From a virus: a stretch of DNA of 64,000 nt. A model generated the notes under the pieces. That model was not told the DNA's origin and searched no databases. It saw only the letters and a list, made by a program, of their open reading frames with translations. How positions within the stretch are numbered: position 1 is the stretch's first letter; each line of letters opens with the position of its first letter. A program made the position numbers and the translations under genes. This document shows positions 3,083 through 47,754 of this stretch, piece by piece. The DNA lies in IMG/VR virus record IMGVR_UViG_3300037245_003526, positions 152,297 through 216,296 of that record, one strand, 5' to 3'.

Positions 3083-3775
3083 ATGGAAGGCAAACATATA
3101 TGTCACTTTTGTAAAGAATTTATTTCTGATGATGAAATCGGAGGTTCTAAACATGGAGAACCTGTATGTTCTTCATGTTTAGAATATCTTGAATATGGTT
3201 TTCCAATAAAAAAGAAAGAGGTTAGAAAAAATATGAAAAGTGAAATTCAAAAATATAATGGAAATGAACTAACCGAATTAAAAGACTTCATGTATAATAT
3301 ATTAGAATTTGAAGATGATGATCAAGCTAACACCAATATTACTGCTAATCAAGGAATGGGAGTTCAGCTTACAAATACAATGAAAAAAGAAGGTGTTACG
3401 ATAATTCAAAATCAAAGTATTGTAAATAAAAAGGTCACATCCAATGTAGTTAAAGCTCTTAGATTATTGGATAAAATTAAAGATAATTCAGTAAGAACTA
3501 TCGAGATAGAAACAGAGAACAAAAATATCCCAAAAATAACTATAGACCATATAGTTCAAGTTATAGAATGGATAGCTTCAAAAGATCTAACACTAAAAGA
3601 ATTTGATAAATTAATGAGAGGTTTTTATAGTAGAGCTGTAATTGATAAAAATGGTAGTAGTAAACAAGCTTCTGTAATTCTTGGGTGTAGTCAAAGTACA
3701 GCCAGCGTTTATTCAAGAGGAGGAGATGATGTTCTTGATAAAATAAATGGAAATCAATTAGAGGTTATTGAATAA
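3083..3775 (+). CDS. hypothetical protein, N-terminal Cys cluster and C-terminal HTH-like segment
   Basis: CHFCKE..CSSC near the N-terminus; KQASVILGCSQSTASVYSRG resembles a helix-turn-helix. Confidence 0.4.
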   Translation: MEGKHICHFCKEFISDDEIGGSKHGEPVCSSCLEYLEYGFPIKKKEVRKNMKSEIQKYNGNELTELKDFMYNILEFEDDDQANTNITANQGMGVQLTNTMKKEGVTIIQNQSIVNKKVTSNVVKALRLLDKIKDNSVRTIEIETENKNIPKITIDHIVQVIEWIASKDLTLKEFDKLMRGFYSRAVIDKNGSSKQASVILGCSQSTASVYSRGGDDVLDKINGNQLEVIE

Positions 3776-4226
3776 AATGAAACTTGAATCGTGGGAAGTA
3801 ATATGTGATAAATGTAATGGAGACTCATTTGTAGATATAGGAGATAAAAATTATTCTGTAGTATGCCCAAAATGTATAGGTGATGGAAAACTAGATTTTA
3901 TTGAAAATATCACTGGAAAGAAAAAACTTATATGGAAGCCAAGAAGTGAAGGAGCATCTAAATTATGTCAACTTAATGTAAGAAGATTAATTACATATAT
4001 TGAAAAAATAGTTCGATGTATTCTTGATGAACATATTAATAATTATAATAAGAATGTTGTTTTTTCTAAGGTTGATAATATTTTAGATCTCTTAAAAAAC
4101 CGTAAAGCATTCAAATGGTATGAACTTGAAATTATACCTTTGAAGAATAGATCAAACTTAGATATAGTTATAAGACCTCCATTAATAGATGAATCATTTA
4201 AAATATCGTTTACGTATACTTCATAA
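3768..4226 (+). CDS. DnaJ-type zinc-finger (CxxCxGxG x2) family protein, isolated paralogue
   Basis: WEVICDKCNGDS...CPKCIGDGKLDFIENITGKKK has the same motif as the 45.7-47.8 kb tandem family. Confidence 0.5.
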   Translation: MNKMKLESWEVICDKCNGDSFVDIGDKNYSVVCPKCIGDGKLDFIENITGKKKLIWKPRSEGASKLCQLNVRRLITYIEKIVRCILDEHINNYNKNVVFSKVDNILDLLKNRKAFKWYELEIIPLKNRSNLDIVIRPPLIDESFKISFTYTS

Positions 4227-35820: not shown

Positions 35821-36609
35821 ATGAAAGGAAATAAATTGAAAACTCTAAAACAAAAAAGAGAATATAATCGAAAGAGACAAACGAATGAACGTGGAAAAGC
35901 AGCTCCATTATCTGGTAGAAAACGAGAACTCCAAACTTGTCAATTTGATGATGATATAAGAAAAGCTCCAGTCTATGCTTTACAGCAACATAGAGCAAGT
36001 GGATCTGATATTAATCGTATGCTGACCTCAAGAGAAATTGGAGAAATAACTTTTTATAAATGGAGAACAATAGATGCAGTTATACGAAATTTATCAGATC
36101 ATTCTTGTTTTAAAGATATGATAGTAAAGGAAAATCATGGAGCAAATACAATATCTTATTTTAAAATGAAAGATATGTATCGTAATTTTCCATTAGATAG
36201 TCTAATGTTAATGATTGAAATGACATATGATTCTACAAGAATTTATCATGGAAAAAATAATGGACCAAATAAACCAGAATCCTTAATACTTTCTATATTA
36301 CGAAGTACCCATCCTGGAGAATGGTTATTTTCAGGAGACAGATCAGAACCAAAAATTGGAAGATGTTGGCCAGATTTTACTTGTTATAAATACAAATTAT
36401 TAATAGAACATTTTGGTGACTATTATCATAGTAAAGTTTTTACAGGTAAAAGTAAAAAAGAACATGAACAAGAAAAAATAAAAGGATTTAAAAAACATGG
36501 TTGGAATACATTAGTAATATGGGAAAAAGAAACTATAAATATTAAAAAAATGGAACAAAAAATAATTAATTTTATTGAAAAGAACATAAAGGGAAAATTA
36601 GATGTCTAA
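35821..36609 (+). CDS. DUF559/Vsr-like endonuclease domain protein (possible homing endonuclease)
   Basis: CWPDFTCYKYKLLIEHFGDYYH...GWNTLVIWEKE resembles the Vsr/DUF559 core (..vDF...EvDG..H...GW.V.R.WE.E). Confidence 0.45.
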   Translation: MKGNKLKTLKQKREYNRKRQTNERGKAAPLSGRKRELQTCQFDDDIRKAPVYALQQHRASGSDINRMLTSREIGEITFYKWRTIDAVIRNLSDHSCFKDMIVKENHGANTISYFKMKDMYRNFPLDSLMLMIEMTYDSTRIYHGKNNGPNKPESLILSILRSTHPGEWLFSGDRSEPKIGRCWPDFTCYKYKLLIEHFGDYYHSKVFTGKSKKEHEQEKIKGFKKHGWNTLVIWEKETINIKKMEQKIINFIEKNIKGKLDV

Positions 36610-37120
36610 TATAAGTCCATATCAAGTATTTTGGAACTGGATATTTGATGGAAAAAAGAATTCACCAATTCCACAACAAGAGGTTCTTCTAAAATATAAC
36701 TCACCTATTACATGTACATATCTTATGAGATCATTTATAGGTAATGCAAAGTTGAATCTATATATGAATACTTATATGAATAATCTTGGTCTGAGATATA
36801 TTAAATTAGAAGATTTATTTAAGTTTATTAAACAAGCAGTTAAAGACTTTAAAGTAAGAAGAAAATCAATTCACTATATCACTTGGGAAAGAAAAACTAC
36901 TCTATATGAAAAGGTTAGAAAAAAGTTTCCATTATTAAAAGGTCATGAAGTTTCTCTTTTCTGTGATCTCATTGATAAGTCACCTGAGAAAGATTCAGTA
37001 TATTCATCATTCGGAATTGATAAACCAAAAAAACAAAATAAGAAAAATGGTAAAAAATCAAAGAAAAAAATAAACCAAAAAAATTTTATAGCTGAGAATT
37101 TTAATTTGGTCAATGTTTAA
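36602..37120 (+). CDS. hypothetical protein with a Lys-rich C-terminus
   Basis: ORF. Confidence 0.35.
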   Translation: MSNISPYQVFWNWIFDGKKNSPIPQQEVLLKYNSPITCTYLMRSFIGNAKLNLYMNTYMNNLGLRYIKLEDLFKFIKQAVKDFKVRRKSIHYITWERKTTLYEKVRKKFPLLKGHEVSLFCDLIDKSPEKDSVYSSFGIDKPKKQNKKNGKKSKKKINQKNFIAENFNLVNV

Positions 37121-37158
37121 ATGGGGGTCACTTTAAAGCAACCCCCCATTTAAACCAC

Positions 37159-37557
37159 CTAAAGAATAATCAAAAATGTTGTATTCCATAAGAAATGCAT
37201 ACATACAGCTTCTTTATAACCCCATCTAACTTGGGTTTTATAAAATCCATAATGTGCTGTTGATGCCAATACCCTATAGAATAAGAACCATGATAACTCC
37301 ATTTCTGAAAAAGCAAACCGGTAAGTGATTCCCTCAATAAGCACAAACCATATAGTCCATGATAATCCTACTCCTGAATCAATTGCTCTCTTTCTTCCAT
37401 ATTCCTCCATTAGAGGACATATAACTAATCCACTTAGGAGAAACACATATTCAGGACACATCACTAATTCAACCCCAGTTTCAGATATACATATCAGAAT
37501 AGTTAAGACCATTATTGATATCAAACATAAACTGTGATTTTTTATTGCTACTGTCAT
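37159..37557 (-). CDS. CPBP (CAAX protease / Abi) family intramembrane metalloprotease
   Basis: motifs EEYGRKR (EExxxR), ..AHYGF (FxxxH-like) and HFLWN (HxxxN) in a 4-5 TM protein. Confidence 0.55.
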   Translation of the reverse strand: MTVAIKNHSLCLISIMVLTILICISETGVELVMCPEYVFLLSGLVICPLMEEYGRKRAIDSGVGLSWTIWFVLIEGITYRFAFSEMELSWFLFYRVLASTAHYGFYKTQVRWGYKEAVCMHFLWNTTFLIIL

Positions 37558-37568
37558 ATTTTCCTCCG

Positions 37569-37715
37569 TTAAGCTTTTACTTCAAATCCAAAACAACACC
37601 AGTGACACAACACTGTTTCTTTTTCAGAATTTAAAGCGTACTCAGAAGTTAAGTTACAATTTGGGCATTTTCTTACTACTATTGCCACAAACATTGATTT
37701 AAGATAATAAGACAT
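37569..37715 (-). CDS. small Cys-containing peptide (~48 aa) immediately upstream of the CPBP protease
   Basis: not in the track; strong RBS AAAAAGGAGATTAAATATG; CPNC...CHWCC; co-directional with the protease and 11 nt from it. Confidence 0.35.
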   Translation of the reverse strand: MSYYLKSMFVAIVVRKCPNCNLTSEYALNSEKETVLCHWCCFGFEVKA

Positions 37716-37774
37716 ATTTAATCTCCTTTTTTAAAAGTTAAAATCAAAACTAAATACTCCTATCTATCAAACCA

Positions 37775-37790
37775 TAATATATATAGTATA
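37775..37790 (-). promoter_or_regulatory. AATATATATAGTATA motif upstream of the peptide/CPBP operon
   Basis: ATAATATATATAGTATA ... ATAATGGAT, close to the 58349 and 59169 copies. Confidence 0.3.
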
Positions 37791-37822
37791 TCTCGATATA
37801 ATGGATTATTTTTTTTACGATA

Positions 37823-37840
37823 GGAACATAATATAAATGG
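37823..37840 (+). promoter_or_regulatory. promoter-like motif GGAACATAATATAAATGG upstream of DNA polymerase
   Basis: GAACATAT-family motif. Confidence 0.35.
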
Positions 37841-37869
37841 ATGAATTAATATAAAATGAAAGGGGTTAT

Positions 37870-40800
37870 ATGTTTTCGATAAAAGACTCGTTCGCTGATT
37901 GTTCTAAATGCTCCCTATCAAACGCACCTTCCTGTATACTTGAAACTAATTCAAAAAGTGACTTATCAAAAGTTGACGTGGTATTCGTAAGTGAGAATCC
38001 AGGTAAGAATGAAGTTGAAAAACAGGTTCCGTTGATAGGGAAAGCAGGACAAACATTTAGAAAGTATTTTAACAAGTATATAAAGAAAGAGTGTAAGTGG
38101 TTATTAACGAATTGTGTTTTATGTCTTACCCTTGATGAAAAAGGTAATACAGGAAATCCGGAAGATGAAGTTATAGATAGATGTAAAGAAAATTGTTTTA
38201 GGATTATTGAAGCATGTAATCCAAAATTAATAGTTCTTATGGGTACATCTCCAATGAAAGCTTTTGGTCTTGGTAAAAGTGGAATAACTAATCTAAGAGG
38301 AAAGATGTTTAATTGGAAAGGTACTCAAGTTTTATTAACTGTTCATCCGTCTTATGTAAATAGAAATAGAACATTTGAAGAAAAGTTTGAAAGAGATATA
38401 ATAAGCGCAGCTAACATAGTAGCATTTTTGGATAAACCTATACAAATAGATGTAGATGCAAGTGAAGCAGAAAAAGGAGAAAAAGGAATATTCAGATATA
38501 AGATTCCGGATAAGTTTTATACTGATGATTTTAGATTAGTTGATATTCAATATCTTAATAAAACAAATGAAGTACTTTATATATTCAGGGATAGAGATAA
38601 TAAGAAAGTATATCATAAAGAGTGTGATGATTATATAGCGTATGTTACACCAGAAGGGTTACCACCACGAAAGATAATTCCTTATGATCAGTTACACCAA
38701 ATAAAAGTTTCATATAAGGAAAAAGTAAAATTAGATTTTGAAACTACTTATGAAGGTGATCTTAGAGTAACAGTAAAACATGCTATGGATTATTATCATT
38801 TTAATAAAGCGGAAGCAGATAAAATAAATTCTAATATAATGTTTGCTGATATTGAGATAGATACAGGAATTGATAATAAATCTTTTCCGCATCCAAAAGA
38901 AGCTAAGTATCCAATTAATATGATTTCAACTGTATATCATAAAAAAGTTATATGTTATGTAATAGATAATAATACAGATCCTATAGAAGAACAAGAAGGT
39001 GCTGAAATAAAAATATTTAAAAATGAGCGTAAGATGCTTACTACTTTCATTGCTGACTTTAAAGAAACTGATCCTGATTTTATTGCTGGTTGGAATGCAA
39101 TATCATTCGACCTTGAATATATTTTCAATAGACTTCCAAGAATAAAAATATCAAAAGAAAGTTTTTCAAAGTTTGGAGAATTCTATGTTGATGGTTTTAG
39201 ATATGTATGTAACCTTCCTGGTTGTATAGTATTAGATCAATTATTCTTATATAAGTCATTTACATTTACTAAAAAAGAAAATTATAAACTTGGTACAATT
39301 GGAGAAATTGAAGTAAAGGTATCTAAGGTTAAAATGGAATTTCCTATAAACGAAATGTATTATAAAGATATTAATAAACTAATTGAATATAATATAAGGG
39401 ACTCCGTACTTCTAGATAAATTGGAAGATAAACTTGGACATATAAATTTATTGAATGAGTTAAGGATAATATGTAATTCAAGTTTTGATGGAGCAAGTTC
39501 CCCATTCGGTCAAGTGGATTCTATAATAGTTTCATTCTTGAGAGAAAAAGGATTAGCATCTAAGAATTCAAATCCGCATGTTCCTAAAAAAGATTATCCA
39601 GGAGCATTTGTTCTTGAACCAACACCAGGTGTTTATGATTATGCAGCTGACCTTGATTATACATCACTATATCCATCGTTAATTATGACATATAATATAG
39701 GGGTTAATAATTTTGTTATGAGGACTGAGGACCCTGCTGTTGGTCATGATATAGCATATAACCCTGATAGTATGTCAGAGGAAATAACTATTATTGATGA
39801 TCCAACTTTTGAAAAGAAAAGAATTTTTATGAAGAAAGAAGCTATATTAAAAAAGATAAAAGATGAAAATCTAATTCATACTATTAATGGATGTTTCTTC
39901 AAAAATCATTCTGACGAGGTATCAATTTATTCACAGGTTCTTGAAAGTCTTTTAAGTGGTAGACGAGCATATAAAAAGAAGATGCTTGATGCTAAAGAAG
40001 CTGGAGATGAACAGTTGAAGGATTTTTATAATACTAAACAGATGGTTTATAAGGTTCTTGCTAACTCCTTATATGGAGTAATTGCAAATAAAGCTTTTAG
40101 GTTTTTTGATATTAATTGTGCTGCAGCAATAACTTTAGGAGGACAAGAAACATTAAAGACTTCGATAATAGAAGGTGATGCCTATATGACATTTTTAAAG
40201 GGTGATTCAAAAGACCCATTAGAAGGAGTTGTTGATGTTACTAGAAAAGAAGTCTATGATAAAGTAATGCCAAACCGAAAACCAAAAAATATAATAACAG
40301 GTGATACAGATTCAATTTTTATTTGTTTTGAAAAATTTAAAGGAAAGAAAACTGATGAAATGATAATAGGTTGGTGTAATAGAATGCAGGATTATTTAAA
40401 CAGTATATCAATTCAAAAAACTATTGCTCGTCATAATGTTCCTTCTAAATATAATAAATTAGAACTTAAAAATGAGTTAGTAATAAGAAGGGGACTATTT
40501 CTTGCAAAGAAATACTATTCAATATATGTAACAAATCAAGAAGGCAGAGCTATTGATGAAATAGTTTATATGGGTATTTCAGTAAAGAGATCAGATACTC
40601 CATCTCATACAAAGGTTTTTCTAAAAGAGTTATTAGATATTATTTTAAAATCCGAATCATTTGGTTTGCCTCTTTTATTTAAGTTTATAAATCAAAAAGA
40701 AAAAGAATTTATTAAACTTATAAAAGAAGGTTCTAAAACAGTAGCAAAACCGGTTGGTTGGAATAAACCTCTTAAAGAATATAAGAGTTTACCAGAAGGT

Positions 40801-41115
40801 GTTAGAGGAATGGCAAACTTTAATGAAGTATCATATCCTATACATTCAATTGGTAATAGGGGATATCTATTTCATGTTAACGGAATTGATCTTGATAAAG
40901 CTCCACAAGATGTTGTTGATAATTATAATAAAAATATGTTAGTAAAAGGAAAGAAATTAGATATTGTTGTTGTACCAGATGAAGAAGAAACTTTACCTGA
41001 TTATTATAATCCAAATGTAAAAATGATGTTAGCTAAATCATTTAAAGAACGATATGAACTTATTTTGAAACCATTAACAGAAGCTAAGAAGAAAGAAGAA
41101 ATAATGACTATATAA
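37870..41115 (+). CDS. family B DNA polymerase with 3'-5' exonuclease domain
   Basis: 1081 aa; DLDYTSLYPSLI (motif A), ITGDTDSIF (motif C, YGDTDS-like), KxxxNSxYG-like NSLYGV (motif B). Confidence 0.9.
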   Translation: MFSIKDSFADCSKCSLSNAPSCILETNSKSDLSKVDVVFVSENPGKNEVEKQVPLIGKAGQTFRKYFNKYIKKECKWLLTNCVLCLTLDEKGNTGNPEDEVIDRCKENCFRIIEACNPKLIVLMGTSPMKAFGLGKSGITNLRGKMFNWKGTQVLLTVHPSYVNRNRTFEEKFERDIISAANIVAFLDKPIQIDVDASEAEKGEKGIFRYKIPDKFYTDDFRLVDIQYLNKTNEVLYIFRDRDNKKVYHKECDDYIAYVTPEGLPPRKIIPYDQLHQIKVSYKEKVKLDFETTYEGDLRVTVKHAMDYYHFNKAEADKINSNIMFADIEIDTGIDNKSFPHPKEAKYPINMISTVYHKKVICYVIDNNTDPIEEQEGAEIKIFKNERKMLTTFIADFKETDPDFIAGWNAISFDLEYIFNRLPRIKISKESFSKFGEFYVDGFRYVCNLPGCIVLDQLFLYKSFTFTKKENYKLGTIGEIEVKVSKVKMEFPINEMYYKDINKLIEYNIRDSVLLDKLEDKLGHINLLNELRIICNSSFDGASSPFGQVDSIIVSFLREKGLASKNSNPHVPKKDYPGAFVLEPTPGVYDYAADLDYTSLYPSLIMTYNIGVNNFVMRTEDPAVGHDIAYNPDSMSEEITIIDDPTFEKKRIFMKKEAILKKIKDENLIHTINGCFFKNHSDEVSIYSQVLESLLSGRRAYKKKMLDAKEAGDEQLKDFYNTKQMVYKVLANSLYGVIANKAFRFFDINCAAAITLGGQETLKTSIIEGDAYMTFLKGDSKDPLEGVVDVTRKEVYDKVMPNRKPKNIITGDTDSIFICFEKFKGKKTDEMIIGWCNRMQDYLNSISIQKTIARHNVPSKYNKLELKNELVIRRGLFLAKKYYSIYVTNQEGRAIDEIVYMGISVKRSDTPSHTKVFLKELLDIILKSESFGLPLLFKFINQKEKEFIKLIKEGSKTVAKPVGWNKPLKEYKSLPEGVRGMANFNEVSYPIHSIGNRGYLFHVNGIDLDKAPQDVVDNYNKNMLVKGKKLDIVVVPDEEETLPDYYNPNVKMMLAKSFKERYELILKPLTEAKKKEEIMTI

Positions 41116-41343: not shown

Positions 41344-41365
41344 GAGAACATATTAATATAAATTG
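41344..41365 (+). promoter_or_regulatory. promoter-like motif GAGAACATATTAATATAAATTG
   Basis: GAACATAT-family motif upstream of queE. Confidence 0.35.
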
Positions 41366-41377
41366 AAAGGGGTGAAA

Positions 41378-42049
41378 ATGGAATCAGTTAAACTAATTGA
41401 AAACTTTTATAGTTTCCAAGGAGAGGGTCCGGATTGTGGAAAATCAATGGTAATCATTAGATTCAAATATTGTGATAGAGTAGAAAATAAAAATCCATGC
41501 CAATGGTGTGATACTCTAGTTAAAATGAGAATTCAAAATGAAGCTGAATATTCAATTAAAGATATTCAGTCAGGAATAAAAAAACATAAATGTGGTATAT
41601 TAATAACTGGTGGTGAACCTACTTATAGGAATAATCTACCTCAAACAATTGCACTTCTTAATCAACTTGAATATCCTATAGCAAATGTAGAAACTAATGG
41701 TCATCAATTATGTAAATTAAGAAGTACCATATCATTAGATTCAAGAAATATAAAATTCATATTCTCACCAAAATTATTTTCAAGAAAAGATTTAGTTGAA
41801 GCAAGAGATATAATAAAAATTGTAAAAAATGATCCGAGGGTATATTTAAAAGTTGTATGGGATTATCTTCCTTTAACTAAAGAATTTCTTTATAGTTTAA
41901 GAGAAGTTGATAATTCAAAAATTTTTATAATGCCTCAGGGTAAAACTAAAGAAGAATTGTTTAAATGTGCACCAGATGTATTTGATTTATGTGAAGAGTT
42001 AAAGTTTAATTTTTCAAGTCGAGCACATATAATTTATGACTTTGTTTAG
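41378..42049 (+). CDS. queE: 7-carboxy-7-deazaguanine synthase (QueE, radical SAM)
   Basis: FYSFQGEGPDCGKSMVIIRFKYC...CQWCDT and ILITGGEPT match the QueE N-terminus and Cys triad; start moved to an Met with RBS (the track start lies in the promoter motif). Confidence 0.65.
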   Translation: MESVKLIENFYSFQGEGPDCGKSMVIIRFKYCDRVENKNPCQWCDTLVKMRIQNEAEYSIKDIQSGIKKHKCGILITGGEPTYRNNLPQTIALLNQLEYPIANVETNGHQLCKLRSTISLDSRNIKFIFSPKLFSRKDLVEARDIIKIVKNDPRVYLKVVWDYLPLTKEFLYSLREVDNSKIFIMPQGKTKEELFKCAPDVFDLCEELKFNFSSRAHIIYDFV

Positions 42050-42323: not shown

Positions 42324-42605
42324 ATGAGTGATTTAGTTGCAATTGGTGATCATGTTATAGGGAGAGAAATAATTGAAACAACAAGTAAAGGTGGGATAAT
42401 AATCCCTGAAACTGCTGCACCAACTACTCCTCAACTTGAATGTGAAGTAGTATCAGTTGGTCCAGATGTATCATCAGCTCTAAAAGTTGGGGATACTATA
42501 TATTGTCATCAACGAGGTGGACAAGCTCTTATGTTGGATGGTGTATTATATAAAGTTTTGAAGCTTGGTGAAGTATATGGAAGGAAGGTGAGGAATGGGG
42601 AATAA
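42324..42605 (+). CDS. groES: GroES-like co-chaperonin (Hsp10)
   Basis: VAIGDHVIGREIIETTSKGGIIIPETAA...KVGDTIY fits the GroES pattern (rvlvkr.e.e.kt.gGIvlpd.a). Confidence 0.7.
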   Translation: MSDLVAIGDHVIGREIIETTSKGGIIIPETAAPTTPQLECEVVSVGPDVSSALKVGDTIYCHQRGGQALMLDGVLYKVLKLGEVYGRKVRNGE

Positions 42606-43395
42606 TATTATAGAAATACAGGCAAGAGATTTATATGATGCCTGGTTTCAATGTATTTATAAAGTAATTGATGAAGGTAATGTATTCAAGATTGATGAAG
42701 GATCTTATGCAGGAAGTGAAAGATTAGAATTTGATCATATTACAGTTCAAATTAAATACCCTGGTTCAAGACCTTTACTTCCTAAAATATCAGAGAGATG
42801 GGCAATACCTGATCCTGTAGAAGAAGGATATCTTAATGACTACCTTCCATATTTAATGACTGGCGAATTGAAGGAAGGTGAATCATATACTTATGGTCAA
42901 AGGATTTGTAACTATCCTATTCCTCCAATTAAAGATATGTCTACTAAGGGTATTTATATAGATGATTCAGAAATATGGAATAATGATAAAATAATATCCA
43001 TAGAAGGTTATACTTCTTTCTTAAATCAAATGGAACTACTTATTTGGACATATAAAAATAAAGGTTTTAGAAATAACCAAATGGTCCTCCAAGTAGCACA
43101 TCCATCTGATATGGTATTACAAGATCCTCCATGTTTGAGACATATCGATACTAGAATTCAAGATGGTAAACTTCACTTCTTTCCCTATTTCAGATCATGG
43201 GATCTGTGGGGTGGTTTTCCGGCAAATCTGGGAGCACTTCAATTGATGAAGGAATATATAGCAATGGAAATTGGAGTGGAGGATGGGGAAATAATTGCTT
43301 CATCAAAAGGGTTACATCTTTATAAACATGTTTTCGATATTGCTAAAATAATTTCAATTAGAGAAGAAGTAGAACTAAATTATGGATCAATGTGA
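42595..43395 (+). CDS. thymidylate-synthase-fold deoxynucleotide hydroxymethylase (dCMP/dUMP hydroxymethyltransferase-like)
   Basis: ...VLQDPPCLRHID has the TS catalytic PPC(H) motif; ~266 aa. Confidence 0.55.
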   Translation: MGNNIIEIQARDLYDAWFQCIYKVIDEGNVFKIDEGSYAGSERLEFDHITVQIKYPGSRPLLPKISERWAIPDPVEEGYLNDYLPYLMTGELKEGESYTYGQRICNYPIPPIKDMSTKGIYIDDSEIWNNDKIISIEGYTSFLNQMELLIWTYKNKGFRNNQMVLQVAHPSDMVLQDPPCLRHIDTRIQDGKLHFFPYFRSWDLWGGFPANLGALQLMKEYIAMEIGVEDGEIIASSKGLHLYKHVFDIAKIISIREEVELNYGSM

Positions 43396-44316: not shown

Positions 44317-45708
44317 ATGGCAGAAAGTGGGTATGTTTTAGCGGGTTGCGAAACTCTTTTTACAATATTAAATAATTTTTCTATTAGAAATACAAAGAAT
44401 AGATTTGAAGATCATTTTACACCTAAACAAGTTTCAGATTTTCTATCAAGTAAATGTCATGGTTTCTTACATTCATTTGGACAGAATTTTTCAGGAAAAA
44501 GAAGTTACGCAAAATATATAGATAATGAAGCAAGTATATTTGAATTTATAAGAGACTCGGGTTTTGGAGATGATTGTATATTAAAGATTGATAGCGGTGG
44601 ATTCCAAGCAAGTGTGGGAAGAATTGATAAAAGTGAAACTCAATTATTAATAGATCTTTATTATCAATTTGTAAGAGATAAACATGAAGTGTTTGATAGA
44701 GCATTTATTTTAGACTTACCACCTGGACCAGGATGTACTCTATTTGATTCATTTGATGATATATACACAAAAAATTTAGAAACATATAATATAGCTAAAA
44801 ATCTTCCTGATGAAGCTCGTAAGAAGATAGTTTATATTCATCATTTTCGAACACCAAAATTATGGGATATATATACTGATATATTAAATCAAGATGGAAT
44901 GTTTGAAGCATTTGATTATTTTGGTACTGGTGGTATCGTAGCAAATATGGCAAGTGATGTTTCTATACCATGTATCATATATGTATTACCTTTAATACCA
45001 ATCCTTAAAAAAGCAATTGAAGCAGGAAGAGATAAACTTAAATTTCATATATTAGGTGGATCAAATTTCAGAGATATATTATTTTATGAACTATTTCAAA
45101 AGCATGTTAAAGTACAGCATGGAATTGAATTAGAAATGACTTTTGATTCTAGTGGACTTTATAAAGGTCTTATGATAGGCAGATATTTTTATCATGTTGA
45201 TAATGGAATAATAAAGAAAGTTGATATAAGAAGTCCAAATCTTGATAAAAGATACAACTTCAATAAAAACGTTATTGATATATATGATGATGTAATATCT
45301 GAATTATCTATTCGAAATAATTTTAAACCAATTCCAATAAATATGAATACAGTATATGATGATGAAACTGGTACATTTTTTGAAGAAGTAAAAGTTTATA
45401 CTATGTTTTGTATGTTAGATAGATTTGCTCAAGTACAGCAATTAATGAAATCTAAGGTAGAAGAAATTTATTCATTATATGAAAATGGAGATCTTGAAGA
45501 ATTTAATAAACGTATTGAATTGATAACTAGAAATATTAATGCTGGTAAAATAACTAAAAAACAGAAAGCTAAATCAACTTCAATTATAAGATCATTAGAT
45601 ATGTTAACTGCCTTAGATACTGATAATTGTAAATATATTGTAGATAAATGTTTAGCGAAAGATGAATTCATGGAACTTGATCCAACTTCAAGACTACTTA
45701 CGGTGTAA
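44317..45708 (+). CDS. dpdA: tRNA-guanine transglycosylase (TGT)-family protein, DpdA-like (putative DNA 7-deazaguanine transglycosylase)
   Basis: ILKIDSGGFQASVG matches the TGT DSGGFQ motif; sits beside queE, the hydroxymethylase and the HD hydrolase. Confidence 0.5.
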   Translation: MAESGYVLAGCETLFTILNNFSIRNTKNRFEDHFTPKQVSDFLSSKCHGFLHSFGQNFSGKRSYAKYIDNEASIFEFIRDSGFGDDCILKIDSGGFQASVGRIDKSETQLLIDLYYQFVRDKHEVFDRAFILDLPPGPGCTLFDSFDDIYTKNLETYNIAKNLPDEARKKIVYIHHFRTPKLWDIYTDILNQDGMFEAFDYFGTGGIVANMASDVSIPCIIYVLPLIPILKKAIEAGRDKLKFHILGGSNFRDILFYELFQKHVKVQHGIELEMTFDSSGLYKGLMIGRYFYHVDNGIIKKVDIRSPNLDKRYNFNKNVIDIYDDVISELSIRNNFKPIPINMNTVYDDETGTFFEEVKVYTMFCMLDRFAQVQQLMKSKVEEIYSLYENGDLEEFNKRIELITRNINAGKITKKQKAKSTSIIRSLDMLTALDTDNCKYIVDKCLAKDEFMELDPTSRLLTV

Positions 45709-45709
45709 T

Positions 45710-45925
45710 ATGAAACTAGAAAAATGGGAAACTAAATGTGATCTATGTAGAGGTAAAAAAAAGATTCTTGCAAGAGATAATCCACATTCATATATATATG
45801 TTCATGGTGCAAAAGTAACATGTTCAAAATGTAACGGTACTGGAAAACTTGATTTTATCGAAAAGATAGTTGGGAAAAAATCAGGTAAAGTTAAAATGAG
45901 AAAAGTAGGAGTTTATCATAGATGA
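45710..45925 (+). CDS. DnaJ-type zinc-finger family protein, tandem paralogue 1
   Basis: KLEKWETKCDLCRGKKK...CSKCNGTGKLDFIEKIVGKK; start placed at an internal Met 2 nt after the upstream stop. Confidence 0.45.
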   Translation: MKLEKWETKCDLCRGKKKILARDNPHSYIYVHGAKVTCSKCNGTGKLDFIEKIVGKKSGKVKMRKVGVYHR

Positions 45926-46194: not shown

Positions 46195-46519
46195 TGAGTA
46201 TCAAGACAAATGTAGAAAGACTGCTTTTTATGCACATGGTAAGGAAGGTTTAAAAGTACTATATCCAACTCTTGGCTTAACAGGTGAGTCAGGAGAAGTA
46301 GCTGAAAAAGTAAAGAAGTTATATAGAGATAAAAATGGTGTTATTGATGATGAATTTATTACTAACATAAAAAAAGAGCTTGGAGATGTTATGTGGTATA
46401 TAGCAGCTCTATGTTCCGATTTGAATCTAAGAATGGAAGATGTTGCAAAAGAAAACATCGAGAAATTGTTAGATAGAAAATCAAGGGGCGTGCTCCATGG
46501 TGATGGAGACAACAGGTAA
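46184..46519 (+). CDS. MazG-like NTP pyrophosphohydrolase
   Basis: GLTGESGEVAEKV...ELGDVMWYIAAL are the MazG EExxE/D and helix motifs. Confidence 0.55.
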   Translation: MDFNEYQDKCRKTAFYAHGKEGLKVLYPTLGLTGESGEVAEKVKKLYRDKNGVIDDEFITNIKKELGDVMWYIAALCSDLNLRMEDVAKENIEKLLDRKSRGVLHGDGDNR

Positions 46520-46712
46520 AAGAAAACTACTTGAAGAATGGGAAGAGTGGTGTTCTAATTGTCATGGTTTTGGTCGTTTTGGATTTCATGAACCAAATAA
46601 GAATAGAGACTCGTTTCCAAAGATATGTCCTAAATGTAGAGGTACAGGAAAATTTGATTTTATCGAAAAAATAACCGGGAAAAAGAAATGGGTGTGGGGT
46701 GATGAAACTTGA
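46497..46712 (+). CDS. DnaJ-type zinc-finger family protein, tandem paralogue 3
   Basis: LLEEWEEWCSNCHGFG...CPKCRGTGKFDFIEKITGKKK. Confidence 0.45.
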   Translation: MVMETTGKRKLLEEWEEWCSNCHGFGRFGFHEPNKNRDSFPKICPKCRGTGKFDFIEKITGKKKWVWGDET

Positions 46713-47043
46713 AGAGTGGGAAGAAGCATGTGATAAATGTAAAGGTTTGGGGTGTAAATATGAATACTTAGGTAATGATAACTCATTTCCAGTACGATGT
46801 AAAAAATGTAATGGTACTGGGAAACTTGACTTTATTGAAAAAATAGTTGGGAAAAAAACTTCTGTGGCAAATTCATATACAGTACATAATTGTTCAAATA
46901 GAGATATAGAAATATATGATTTGGGTGTTAAAATTCCTAAAGGTAATACTATTGATTTATCTATTATGTTTACTAATGACCAAATAGAACAATCAGAAGA
47001 TTTAAAAACTTATACAAGGGAGGGGGTACCAAACATTGGGTAG
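46699..47043 (+). CDS. DnaJ-type zinc-finger family protein, tandem paralogue 4
   Basis: KLEEWEEACDKCKGLG...CKKCNGTGKLDFIEKIVGKK. Confidence 0.45.
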   Translation: MMKLEEWEEACDKCKGLGCKYEYLGNDNSFPVRCKKCNGTGKLDFIEKIVGKKTSVANSYTVHNCSNRDIEIYDLGVKIPKGNTIDLSIMFTNDQIEQSEDLKTYTREGVPNIG

Positions 47044-47383
47044 TATAATTACAGGAAAACCTACAATAGTTAGTCCAACTTTTAGTGTAAAAACAGCTAA
47101 ACCTGGTTATCCATTATCTACTAAAAAACTAAAAGATTATGAAGAAGTATGCGATCAATGTAATGGTTTAGGTTTAACAAAATATAGAGACAATGAATTT
47201 AATCCAATGTCATCTAGTTATAGATGTCCTAAATGTTCCGGTTTTGGTAAACTAGATTTTATTGAAAAAATTGTAGGTAAAAAATTAAAATATGGTGAAG
47301 CAGAACGAATGAGAATAGATTCATCTGGTAATGTTGGAATTGGATCAGTAGCTCCAACACAAAAATTGGAAATTAGATTATGA
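47036..47383 (+). CDS. DnaJ-type zinc-finger family protein, tandem paralogue 5 (fibre-repeat-like C-terminus)
   Basis: YEEVCDQCNGLG...CPKCSGFGKLDFIEKIVGKK; C-terminal SSGNVGIGSVAPTQKLEI resembles the phage tail-fibre repeat. Confidence 0.45.
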   Translation: MGSIITGKPTIVSPTFSVKTAKPGYPLSTKKLKDYEEVCDQCNGLGLTKYRDNEFNPMSSSYRCPKCSGFGKLDFIEKIVGKKLKYGEAERMRIDSSGNVGIGSVAPTQKLEIRL

Positions 47384-47754
47384 AAATAAAAGAATACGAA
47401 TATATATGTGACGAATGTGATGGTTTAGGATTAGTTAAAAGAAAATATGAAGAGTTTGAAGTTGTAACTAAAAGTACTACATGTCCAAAATGTTTAGGTG
47501 ACGGAAAACTTGACTTTATTGAAAATATAACTGGTAAGAAAGCTAAGACATTTACTATTGAATCTGATGCTAACCCATTTACTATTACACCTGATCCTAG
47601 TTTGTCTGGTGGAATAGTTTGGAAAGATGGAGGTGTACCAGCTGGTCCAACAGAAGGTGATGCTTATTTTGATCAAATAAAAGATTCTATGTTTGTTTAC
47701 GATGGAAAAGAATGGGTTGAAGTATGTGATCCTGTATCTATAGGAGGGGTATGA
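47380..47754 (+). CDS. DnaJ-type zinc-finger family protein, tandem paralogue 6
   Basis: YEYICDECDGLG...CPKCLGDGKLDFIENITGKK. Confidence 0.45.
   Translation: MKIKEYEYICDECDGLGLVKRKYEEFEVVTKSTTCPKCLGDGKLDFIENITGKKAKTFTIESDANPFTITPDPSLSGGIVWKDGGVPAGPTEGDAYFDQIKDSMFVYDGKEWVEVCDPVSIGGV

Follow-up and report, generated by a model that had tools for sequence, protein, structure and literature searches.

A two-gene accessory cassette, real, self-contained and opposed in orientation to the replication genes around it, is carried by a large, very AT-rich, distantly T4-like phage. With a probability of about 0.5, we read this cassette as a minimal PrsW-like, probably active intramembrane protease of 132 aa and a co-transcribed zinc-ribbon accessory protein of 48 aa. 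The stretch of DNA analyzed (64,000 nt; hereafter, the window) comes from a phage with a G+C content of about 27–31% and contigs of up to about 245 kb (longest contig with the same peptide and protease: 244,552 bp). When positions 36000–39000 were compared to 50,697 phage records, no DNA similarity was found. The nearest known phage homologues of the family-B DNA polymerase (PolB) encoded next to the cassette, those of T4-like cyanophages, share only about 28% identity with it.

The cassette lies between the PolB gene, from which it diverges, and a convergent gene encoding a 172-aa protein (Table 1). A preliminary description of this region had proposed a 48-aa peptide ORF with a strong ribosome-binding site, located 11 nt upstream of a protease gene on the same strand, and each of these elements was recovered, including the exact peptide sequence. 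The peptide ribosome-binding site is conserved among strains and the 11-nt spacer is identical in all four strains aligned. A gap of this size suggests co-transcription of the two genes, possibly with translational coupling. The cassette promoter is presumably located in the AT-rich intergenic region shared with PolB; a single minus-strand sigma-70-like match was found there (37855–37828), which is weak, and promoter-like sites showed no enrichment over shuffled sequences. T4-type late promoters (TATAAATA) were considered and rejected, being neither enriched nor present upstream of the cassette. At the opposite end, the G+C-rich hairpin between the protease gene and the 172-aa gene has a folding energy of -23.5 kcal/mol on the minus strand and -18.4 kcal/mol on the plus strand (z about -4). 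None of 200 shuffles was as stable, and the stem is retained in four of four strains despite changes in the loop. Unflagged by a simple terminator scan, this hairpin is probably a bidirectional transcription terminator that closes the cassette.

Table 1 Coordinates of the cassette and its immediate surroundings in the window
Feature	Position	Strand	Basis or remark
172-aa gene, converging on protease gene	36602–37120	+	ORF
G+C-rich hairpin between convergent protease gene and 172-aa gene	37115–37155		Fold energy
Gene 2, 132-aa protease-like ORF	37159–37557	-	ORF listing
Protease stop codon TAG	37159–37161	-	Sequence
11-nt spacer holding protease ribosome-binding site	37558–37568	-	Sequence
Protease ribosome-binding site GGAGG	37563–37567	-	5 nt before protease ATG
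Gene 1, 48-aa mini-protein ORF	37569–37715	-	ORF listing; sequence exactly as in the preliminary description
AT-rich intergenic region (154 nt) shared with PolB gene	37716–37869		Sequence
Peptide ribosome-binding site GGAG	37723–37726	-	7 nt before peptide ATG
Family-B DNA polymerase (PolB) gene	37870–41115	+	Divergent from cassette

Comparison of the four strains revealed a 237-nt block (37455–37662; peptide nt 53 to protease nt 131) that is 100% identical in all of them and is flanked by sequence with 10–20% divergence. Strain L013 combines the two haplotypes as a mosaic. Recombination is active within the cassette, and the identical block may be subject to nucleotide-level constraint.

The gene 2 product (132 aa) belongs to the CPBP/PrsW/APH-1 superfamily, resembles an intramembrane protease and has conserved residues of catalytic type. 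It had been described as a CPBP (Abi/CAAX) protease, to be checked with HMMER against PF02517; the superfamily assignment holds, but Pfam scores, the spacing of motif 1 and the placement of a histidine favor PrsW over PF02517. The protein did not match PF02517 (CPBP/Abi/Rce1-like; gathering score 22.4 bits) at E≤1, and its sole Pfam match was PrsW (PF13367; E=0.052, 13.5 bits compared to a cut-off of 23.5). The protein itself is under every curated HMM threshold: nothing reached threshold in PHROGs, NCBIfam or PADLOC, the last of which gave no defense-system match. A word-index search of 5.8 billion proteins identified one relative (86% identical), six in all emerged when 1.84 billion representatives were searched exhaustively with HMMER, and a seventh came from an additional word-index/profile search. 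The family is extremely rare: of roughly 15 billion predicted proteins, eight cluster representatives belong to it.

The relatives are informative about family membership. PrsW was favored by Pfam scores in the window protein and in four of the six relatives scanned; relatives matched PrsW with E-values from 1.4e-5 to 0.023, and most scored best there. One of them, P0004, exceeded the PrsW cut-off (25.2 bits; others: 14.7–19.5 bits) and is tied to the window protein family at E 4e-6 in the search of 1.84 billion proteins. Against PF02517, the relatives reached 12.1–14.9 bits (E 0.03–0.24), below the cut-off. On the evidence of these profiles and of its motifs, the 132-aa protein appears closer to PrsW than to CPBP/Abi. 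No cellular or other relatives were confirmed in IMG/VR, JGI metagenome contigs, or 185,579 bacterial and archaeal GTDB genomes, a tblastn search of phages with the protease returned no match, and the family profile had no match among PDB sequences at E≤10. The 132-aa protein represents a new, divergent, minimal and very rare phage family inside a known protease superfamily.

All relatives are encoded on phage-like contigs, adjoining a PolB with a uracil-DNA-glycosylase (UDG)-like domain, adjoining a T4 portal gene, or near HD-domain genes. The preliminary description had suggested a search for the same gene pair in related phages: the pair is present within one phage species, and the more distant protease loci have other partners. 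The contig L004 (167,786 bp) shares the backbone of the window, with a PolB that is 78% identical and a 172-aa gene that is 76% identical, but its protease shows only 38% identity and the accompanying genes differ. The cassette therefore occupies a hypervariable, fast-evolving slot of the replication module between conserved genes. In L004, the protease is preceded by co-oriented genes for a 62-aa CxC...CxxC protein, a 299-aa multi-CxxC protein, and a 107-aa protein with two transmembrane (TM) helices, the last ending 2 nt before the protease start. In L003 (protease identity 36%), the gene found 12 nt downstream of the protease encodes a 69-aa zinc-ribbon protein (MHCPNC...) and has a separate AAGGAG site. 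No two lineages have the same gene directly upstream of the protease: it is the 48-aa zinc-ribbon gene in the window, the 107-aa two-TM gene in L004, an HD-domain gene in L002, and a 49-aa Lys-rich ORF in L003. Three relatives (P0004, P0006, P0007) have an N-terminal extension of roughly 110 aa and no zinc-ribbon neighbor, and the contigs L005, L006, and L007 are high in G+C.

Several features of these loci were observed in passing. The N-terminal UDG-like domain was present in PolB of the window, of L004 (1–3221), and of L010, with the homologue annotation PF03167 + DNA_pol_B_exo1 + DNA_pol_B + divDNApol. A 262-aa HNH/DUF559-like (homing) endonuclease gene (35821–36609, +) is inserted between a 330-aa gene and the 172-aa gene, and only a 77-aa ORF is found at this position in L004. 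The long-form homologue P0004 (249 aa) lies directly upstream of a T4-type portal gene (L009, 1295–3967), in a morphogenesis module. The HD-domain gene of L002 (4131–4991) is of the HD_5, HD-GYP-like type, and an HD-domain gene (1231–1854) is situated four genes upstream of the protease homologue in L005/L006. By analogy, the protease family might be linked to cyclic-nucleotide signaling, since PrsW-PilZ fusions are known.

Elsewhere in the window, 21 tRNA genes are located within 22 kb (4243–26587, +), several of which are unusually long (85–90 nt) and some of which overlap ORFs (e.g., 23660–23747 and 24321–24406, both inside the ORF at 23658–24410). The tRNA at 26513–26587 (+; ARAGORN label 'tRNA-Pyl') has a CTA anticodon and is a TAG suppressor, which hints at a possible recoding of TAG over a portion of the genome. 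Read-through of the protease stop codon by this tRNA is of no consequence for the cassette, as the product would be just three residues longer. Six paralogous genes (3768–4226, 45662–45925, 46497–46712, 46699–47043, 47036–47383, and 47380–47754, all +) share an N-terminal module with DnaJ-like CxxCxGxG zinc-finger motifs, after which comes a conserved 'GKLDFIEKIxGKK' motif, and five of the six form a tandem array just upstream of a DnaB-like helicase gene. Downstream of PolB, QueE-like radical-SAM and thymidylate-synthase-like genes (41363–42049 and 42595–43395, +) suggest possible DNA base modification (7-deazaguanine or a modified pyrimidine) in this phage.

Given the variability of the slot, it is possible that the two genes are unrelated neighbors. 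The protease would then act by itself or together with host proteins, and the zinc-ribbon protein would have a separate task, as is the case for many small phage proteins of zinc-ribbon type whose ligands are nucleic acids or host proteins. The steep drop in protease identity relative to the PolB and 172-aa genes of L004, together with the lineage-specific upstream genes, is consistent with this explanation, as is the lack of detectable homology among the zinc-ribbon neighbors of the relatives beyond the knuckles themselves. The window peptide and the L003 zinc-ribbon protein, for example, share only a CPNC knuckle; an apparent N-terminal similarity of the peptide to an 83-aa L003 ORF was discarded, the true start of that gene being a later Met at MHCPNC, behind the AAGGAG site. 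On the other side, the 11-nt spacing, same orientation and common terminator argue for one transcript, and zinc-ribbon domains fused to PrsW are known in bacteria (PMC3482391). Moreover, one or more co-oriented zinc-ribbon genes were found in the cassette of all three lineages at this locus (window, L003, and L004), upstream of the protease in the window and downstream in L003. The joint chance of this recurrence is 0.005–0.01, a rough estimate based on the proportion of CxxC...CxxC genes in the window (about 10 of roughly 100, i.e., about 10%); with a base rate this high, the recurrence is suggestive and not conclusive. A functional pairing of peptide and protease is, on these genomic grounds, plausible.

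We then asked what the residues and predicted fold of the 132-aa protein indicate about its activity. An alignment of eight sequences (23–38% identity) showed no variation at P48, E51, E52, G64, E75, G113, H121, and N125; H102 occurs in seven of the eight, the exception being P0002 with Gln. Of the two motifs ascribed to the protein beforehand, HxxxN is present (H121-F-L-W-N125) and invariant in all eight sequences, but EExxxR is literally absent: the sequence reads E51-E52-Y-G-R55-K56, that is, EExxR, within a family consensus of EExx[RK] (P0005: EEYFRG). The helix following the EE helix (residues 64–82) contains the invariant E75 and no histidine, and H102 is located in the next helix. Candidate catalytic residues are E51, E52, E75, H102, H121, and N125. 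The conservation of E51, E52, E75, H121, and N125 fits the earlier proposal that the protein carries catalytic-type motifs and is not a generic membrane protein. Purifying selection acts on the protease (dN/dS = 0.22 between two alleles). The AlphaFold model (pLDDT 86.6, pTM 0.79) comprises five helices in 132 aa, one N-terminal helix and a four-helix core, which is about the minimum size possible for the catalytic core. The fold of this core is similar to that of solved superfamily members (Rce1, APH-1), and a Foldseek search of the PDB with the whole model returned nothing significant. Among viral models (BFVD), the leading matches were small 'CAAX protease' proteins of giant viruses, first one of 139 aa from Orpheovirus ('CAAX amino terminal protease'; probability 0.96, TM 0.61) and also one from Hokovirus, together with gp60 of Bacillus phage G.

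Considering these residues, the 132-aa protein is probably catalytically competent. It is unlikely to be a non-catalytic membrane scaffold or regulator that modulates a host membrane complex by binding instead of cleavage, in the manner of APH-1 in gamma-secretase or of catalytically dead CPBP-like regulators of histidine kinases. In structural comparison the model did match the non-catalytic APH-1 best, with TMEM147 next; one relative has Gln instead of H102; and a protein of five helices is unusually small. However, invariance of the two glutamates, E75, and H121/N125 across eight sequences of such low identity is the pattern of a retained active site. The positive-inside rule would place the K/R-rich loops 53–63 and 103–116 (three K/R each) in the cytoplasm and the acidic loops 25–36 and 79–89 outside, so that E51/E52, H102, and H121 would point toward the cytoplasmic leaflet. 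This cytoplasm-facing topology is uncertain, given that Bacillus subtilis PrsW cuts its substrate on the extracytoplasmic side.

The product of the upstream gene consists of a short hydrophobic N-terminal segment (residues 1–16) followed by a CxxC-x17-CxxC core. Its cysteines (C17xxC20-x17-C38xxC41, plus C42) fit the spacing of about 10–30 residues between two CxxC knuckles, which indicates a four-cysteine zinc-ribbon-type mini-protein. HMM comparison gave weak similarity to YnfU and to the zinc-ribbon part of PriA; there was no Pfam match and no family-level zinc-ribbon match at threshold, and the single-sequence AlphaFold model is of low confidence and uninformative (pLDDT 59). In shuffles of the 312-nt region, a minus-strand ATG-initiated ORF of at least 48 aa occurred in 2.8% of cases, and one that also contained CxxC-x(8–30)-CxxC in 5e-5; among random 40–60-aa ORFs from the shuffled window, 0 of 1,298 had the CxxC...CxxC pattern. 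The ORF is predicted by independent gene callers in other assemblies and is intact in all four strains, which encode three protein variants with differences limited to residues 4, 6, 7, 13, and 18. The conservation of this small ORF, which had been in question, is thus confirmed among strains and ends there, as no homologues were found beyond its own 90%-identity cluster, which corresponds to one phage species. Seven nucleotide differences were counted among strains, nearly all nonsynonymous (6.5 vs 0.5), and the remaining 91 nt of the ORF fall within the identical 237-nt block; there is consequently no positive evidence of purifying selection on the peptide. The 48-aa ORF is very probably a genuine gene.

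In the preliminary description, the peptide was called Cys-rich and the gene pair was taken as a possible module of the CPBP/Abi type for toxin immunity, a bacteriocin-like function or abortive infection, which would make the peptide the toxin or processed peptide and the protease its immunity or processing partner. The cysteines are there, but the features expected of such a module are not. The 48-aa sequence contains no double-glycine leader, Sec signal peptide or lipobox and is therefore unlike a bacteriocin or secreted toxin, and its hydrophobic stretch of only 8–10 residues is too short for a membrane span. These properties indicate an intracellular metal-binding protein. No transporter, export or modification genes were found nearby (the neighbors are PolB, the HNH endonuclease and unknown genes), PADLOC yielded no match, and the peptide is missing from all more distant protease loci examined. 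Such a module would be in keeping with the superfamily that the 132-aa protein shares with CPBP/Abi immunity proteins, with the tight linkage of the two genes, and with the fast evolution of the cassette, a behavior known from conflict genes. We nevertheless regard it as improbable, because the peptide looks intracellular and zinc-binding and the 132-aa protein is outside PF02517, with PrsW-like motifs and histidine placement. The idea that the 48-aa ORF arose by chance in the 5' leader of the protease transcript is very improbable, since the nonsynonymous excess and the confinement to one cluster are outweighed by the length and paired knuckles, the strong conserved ribosome-binding site, and the intact state of the ORF in every strain and its recognition by independent gene callers.

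In the protease–accessory protein reading that we prefer, the 132-aa product would be a minimal intramembrane endopeptidase closest to PrsW, built of an N-terminal helix and a four-helix catalytic core, and its active site would combine Glu-Glu, His and His-xxx-Asn in the manner of the Rce1-type glutamate intramembrane proteases. Its most likely role would be to cleave, during infection, a host or phage protein located in or near the membrane, which would serve envelope or signaling takeover or the exclusion of other phages. The zinc-ribbon mini-protein, cytoplasmic and encoded on one transcript with the protease, would be an accessory subunit that acts as a regulator or adaptor or, less likely, is itself the substrate. 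This arrangement would amount to a split version of the zinc-ribbon-PrsW fusions of bacteria (PMC3482391).

A bolder and rather unlikely extension of this reading is an adaptor-gated, two-component switch of 'regulated intramembrane proteolysis', in which the zinc-ribbon protein would be the sensor or adaptor that gates the five-helix PrsW-like protease. The protease could then cut a host membrane regulator (an anti-sigma factor, a receptor or a defense sensor), with the outcome that the envelope response is reprogrammed or competing phages are excluded. The variable partner genes of related phages would, in such a switch, retarget the same protease to different substrates.

PrsW/CPBP-type intramembrane proteases control envelope-stress signaling, quorum-sensing peptide maturation, and bacteriocin immunity in bacteria. 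To our knowledge, which draws on a limited literature search, their phage-encoded counterparts are essentially unstudied. If active, the 132-aa protein would be a convenient minimal model for the PrsW/CPBP protease class and could point to a route by which large phages manipulate host membrane proteins. The split arrangement of zinc-ribbon protein and protease would be new only if the partnership is true. Overall, the analysis provides a well-supported annotation of dark-matter phage genes, and no surprise.

Among known systems, APH-1 (a gamma-secretase subunit) and TMEM147 are eukaryotic seven-TM non-catalytic scaffolds that have 9% sequence identity to the window protein and are devoid of its Glu-Glu pair. 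The CPBP/Abi/type II CAAX prenyl proteases (PF02517) share the superfamily, the four-helix catalytic core and the HxxxN motif with the window protein, and small viral 'CAAX protease' models are its top BFVD matches. They differ in motif 1, EExxxR, with the arginine one residue closer to the glutamates in the window protein, and have FxxxH in the helix after the EE helix, where the window family has an invariant Glu. Their profile is unmatched by the window protein and its relatives stay below threshold, and no bacteriocin locus context is present here. The small zinc-ribbon proteins (PriA segment, YnfU family) have the same four-cysteine spacing as the peptide, whose hydrophobic 16-residue N-terminal extension is atypical for them.

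The closest comparison is with PrsW, which acts as a site-1 protease on anti-sigma factors or other substrates in the membrane. This family typically has about eight TM helices (PMC3482391), in contrast to five in the model of the window protein, and its motif 3 ends in Asp (HxxxD in the fourth core helix; PMC4602095), whereas that of the window protein ends in Asn, as in CPBP. The window protein also differs by its low score (13.5 bits), by the cytoplasmic orientation predicted for its active site, and by being phage-encoded, with a cellular homologue not found in the 185,579 bacterial and archaeal genomes. Nevertheless, of all Pfam families PrsW gives the highest score with the window protein and four of six relatives, and one relative passes the curated threshold. 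The EExxK/EExxR spacing that distinguishes PrsW-type remote homologues from CPBP proper (EExxxR; PMC4602095; ECOD, PMC6588880) is also that of the window protein family. PrsW has in its third core helix a conserved histidine that is missing from Rce1 (PMC4602095); H102 (seven of eight sequences) corresponds to it, and the fourth-helix H-xxx-[D/N] is likewise common to both. Finally, bacterial 'signaling' PrsW proteases are fused to zinc-ribbon, PilZ, FHA, and cNMP-binding domains (PMC3482391), and the zinc ribbon, known there as a fusion partner, is encoded in the window by a separate gene beside the protease.
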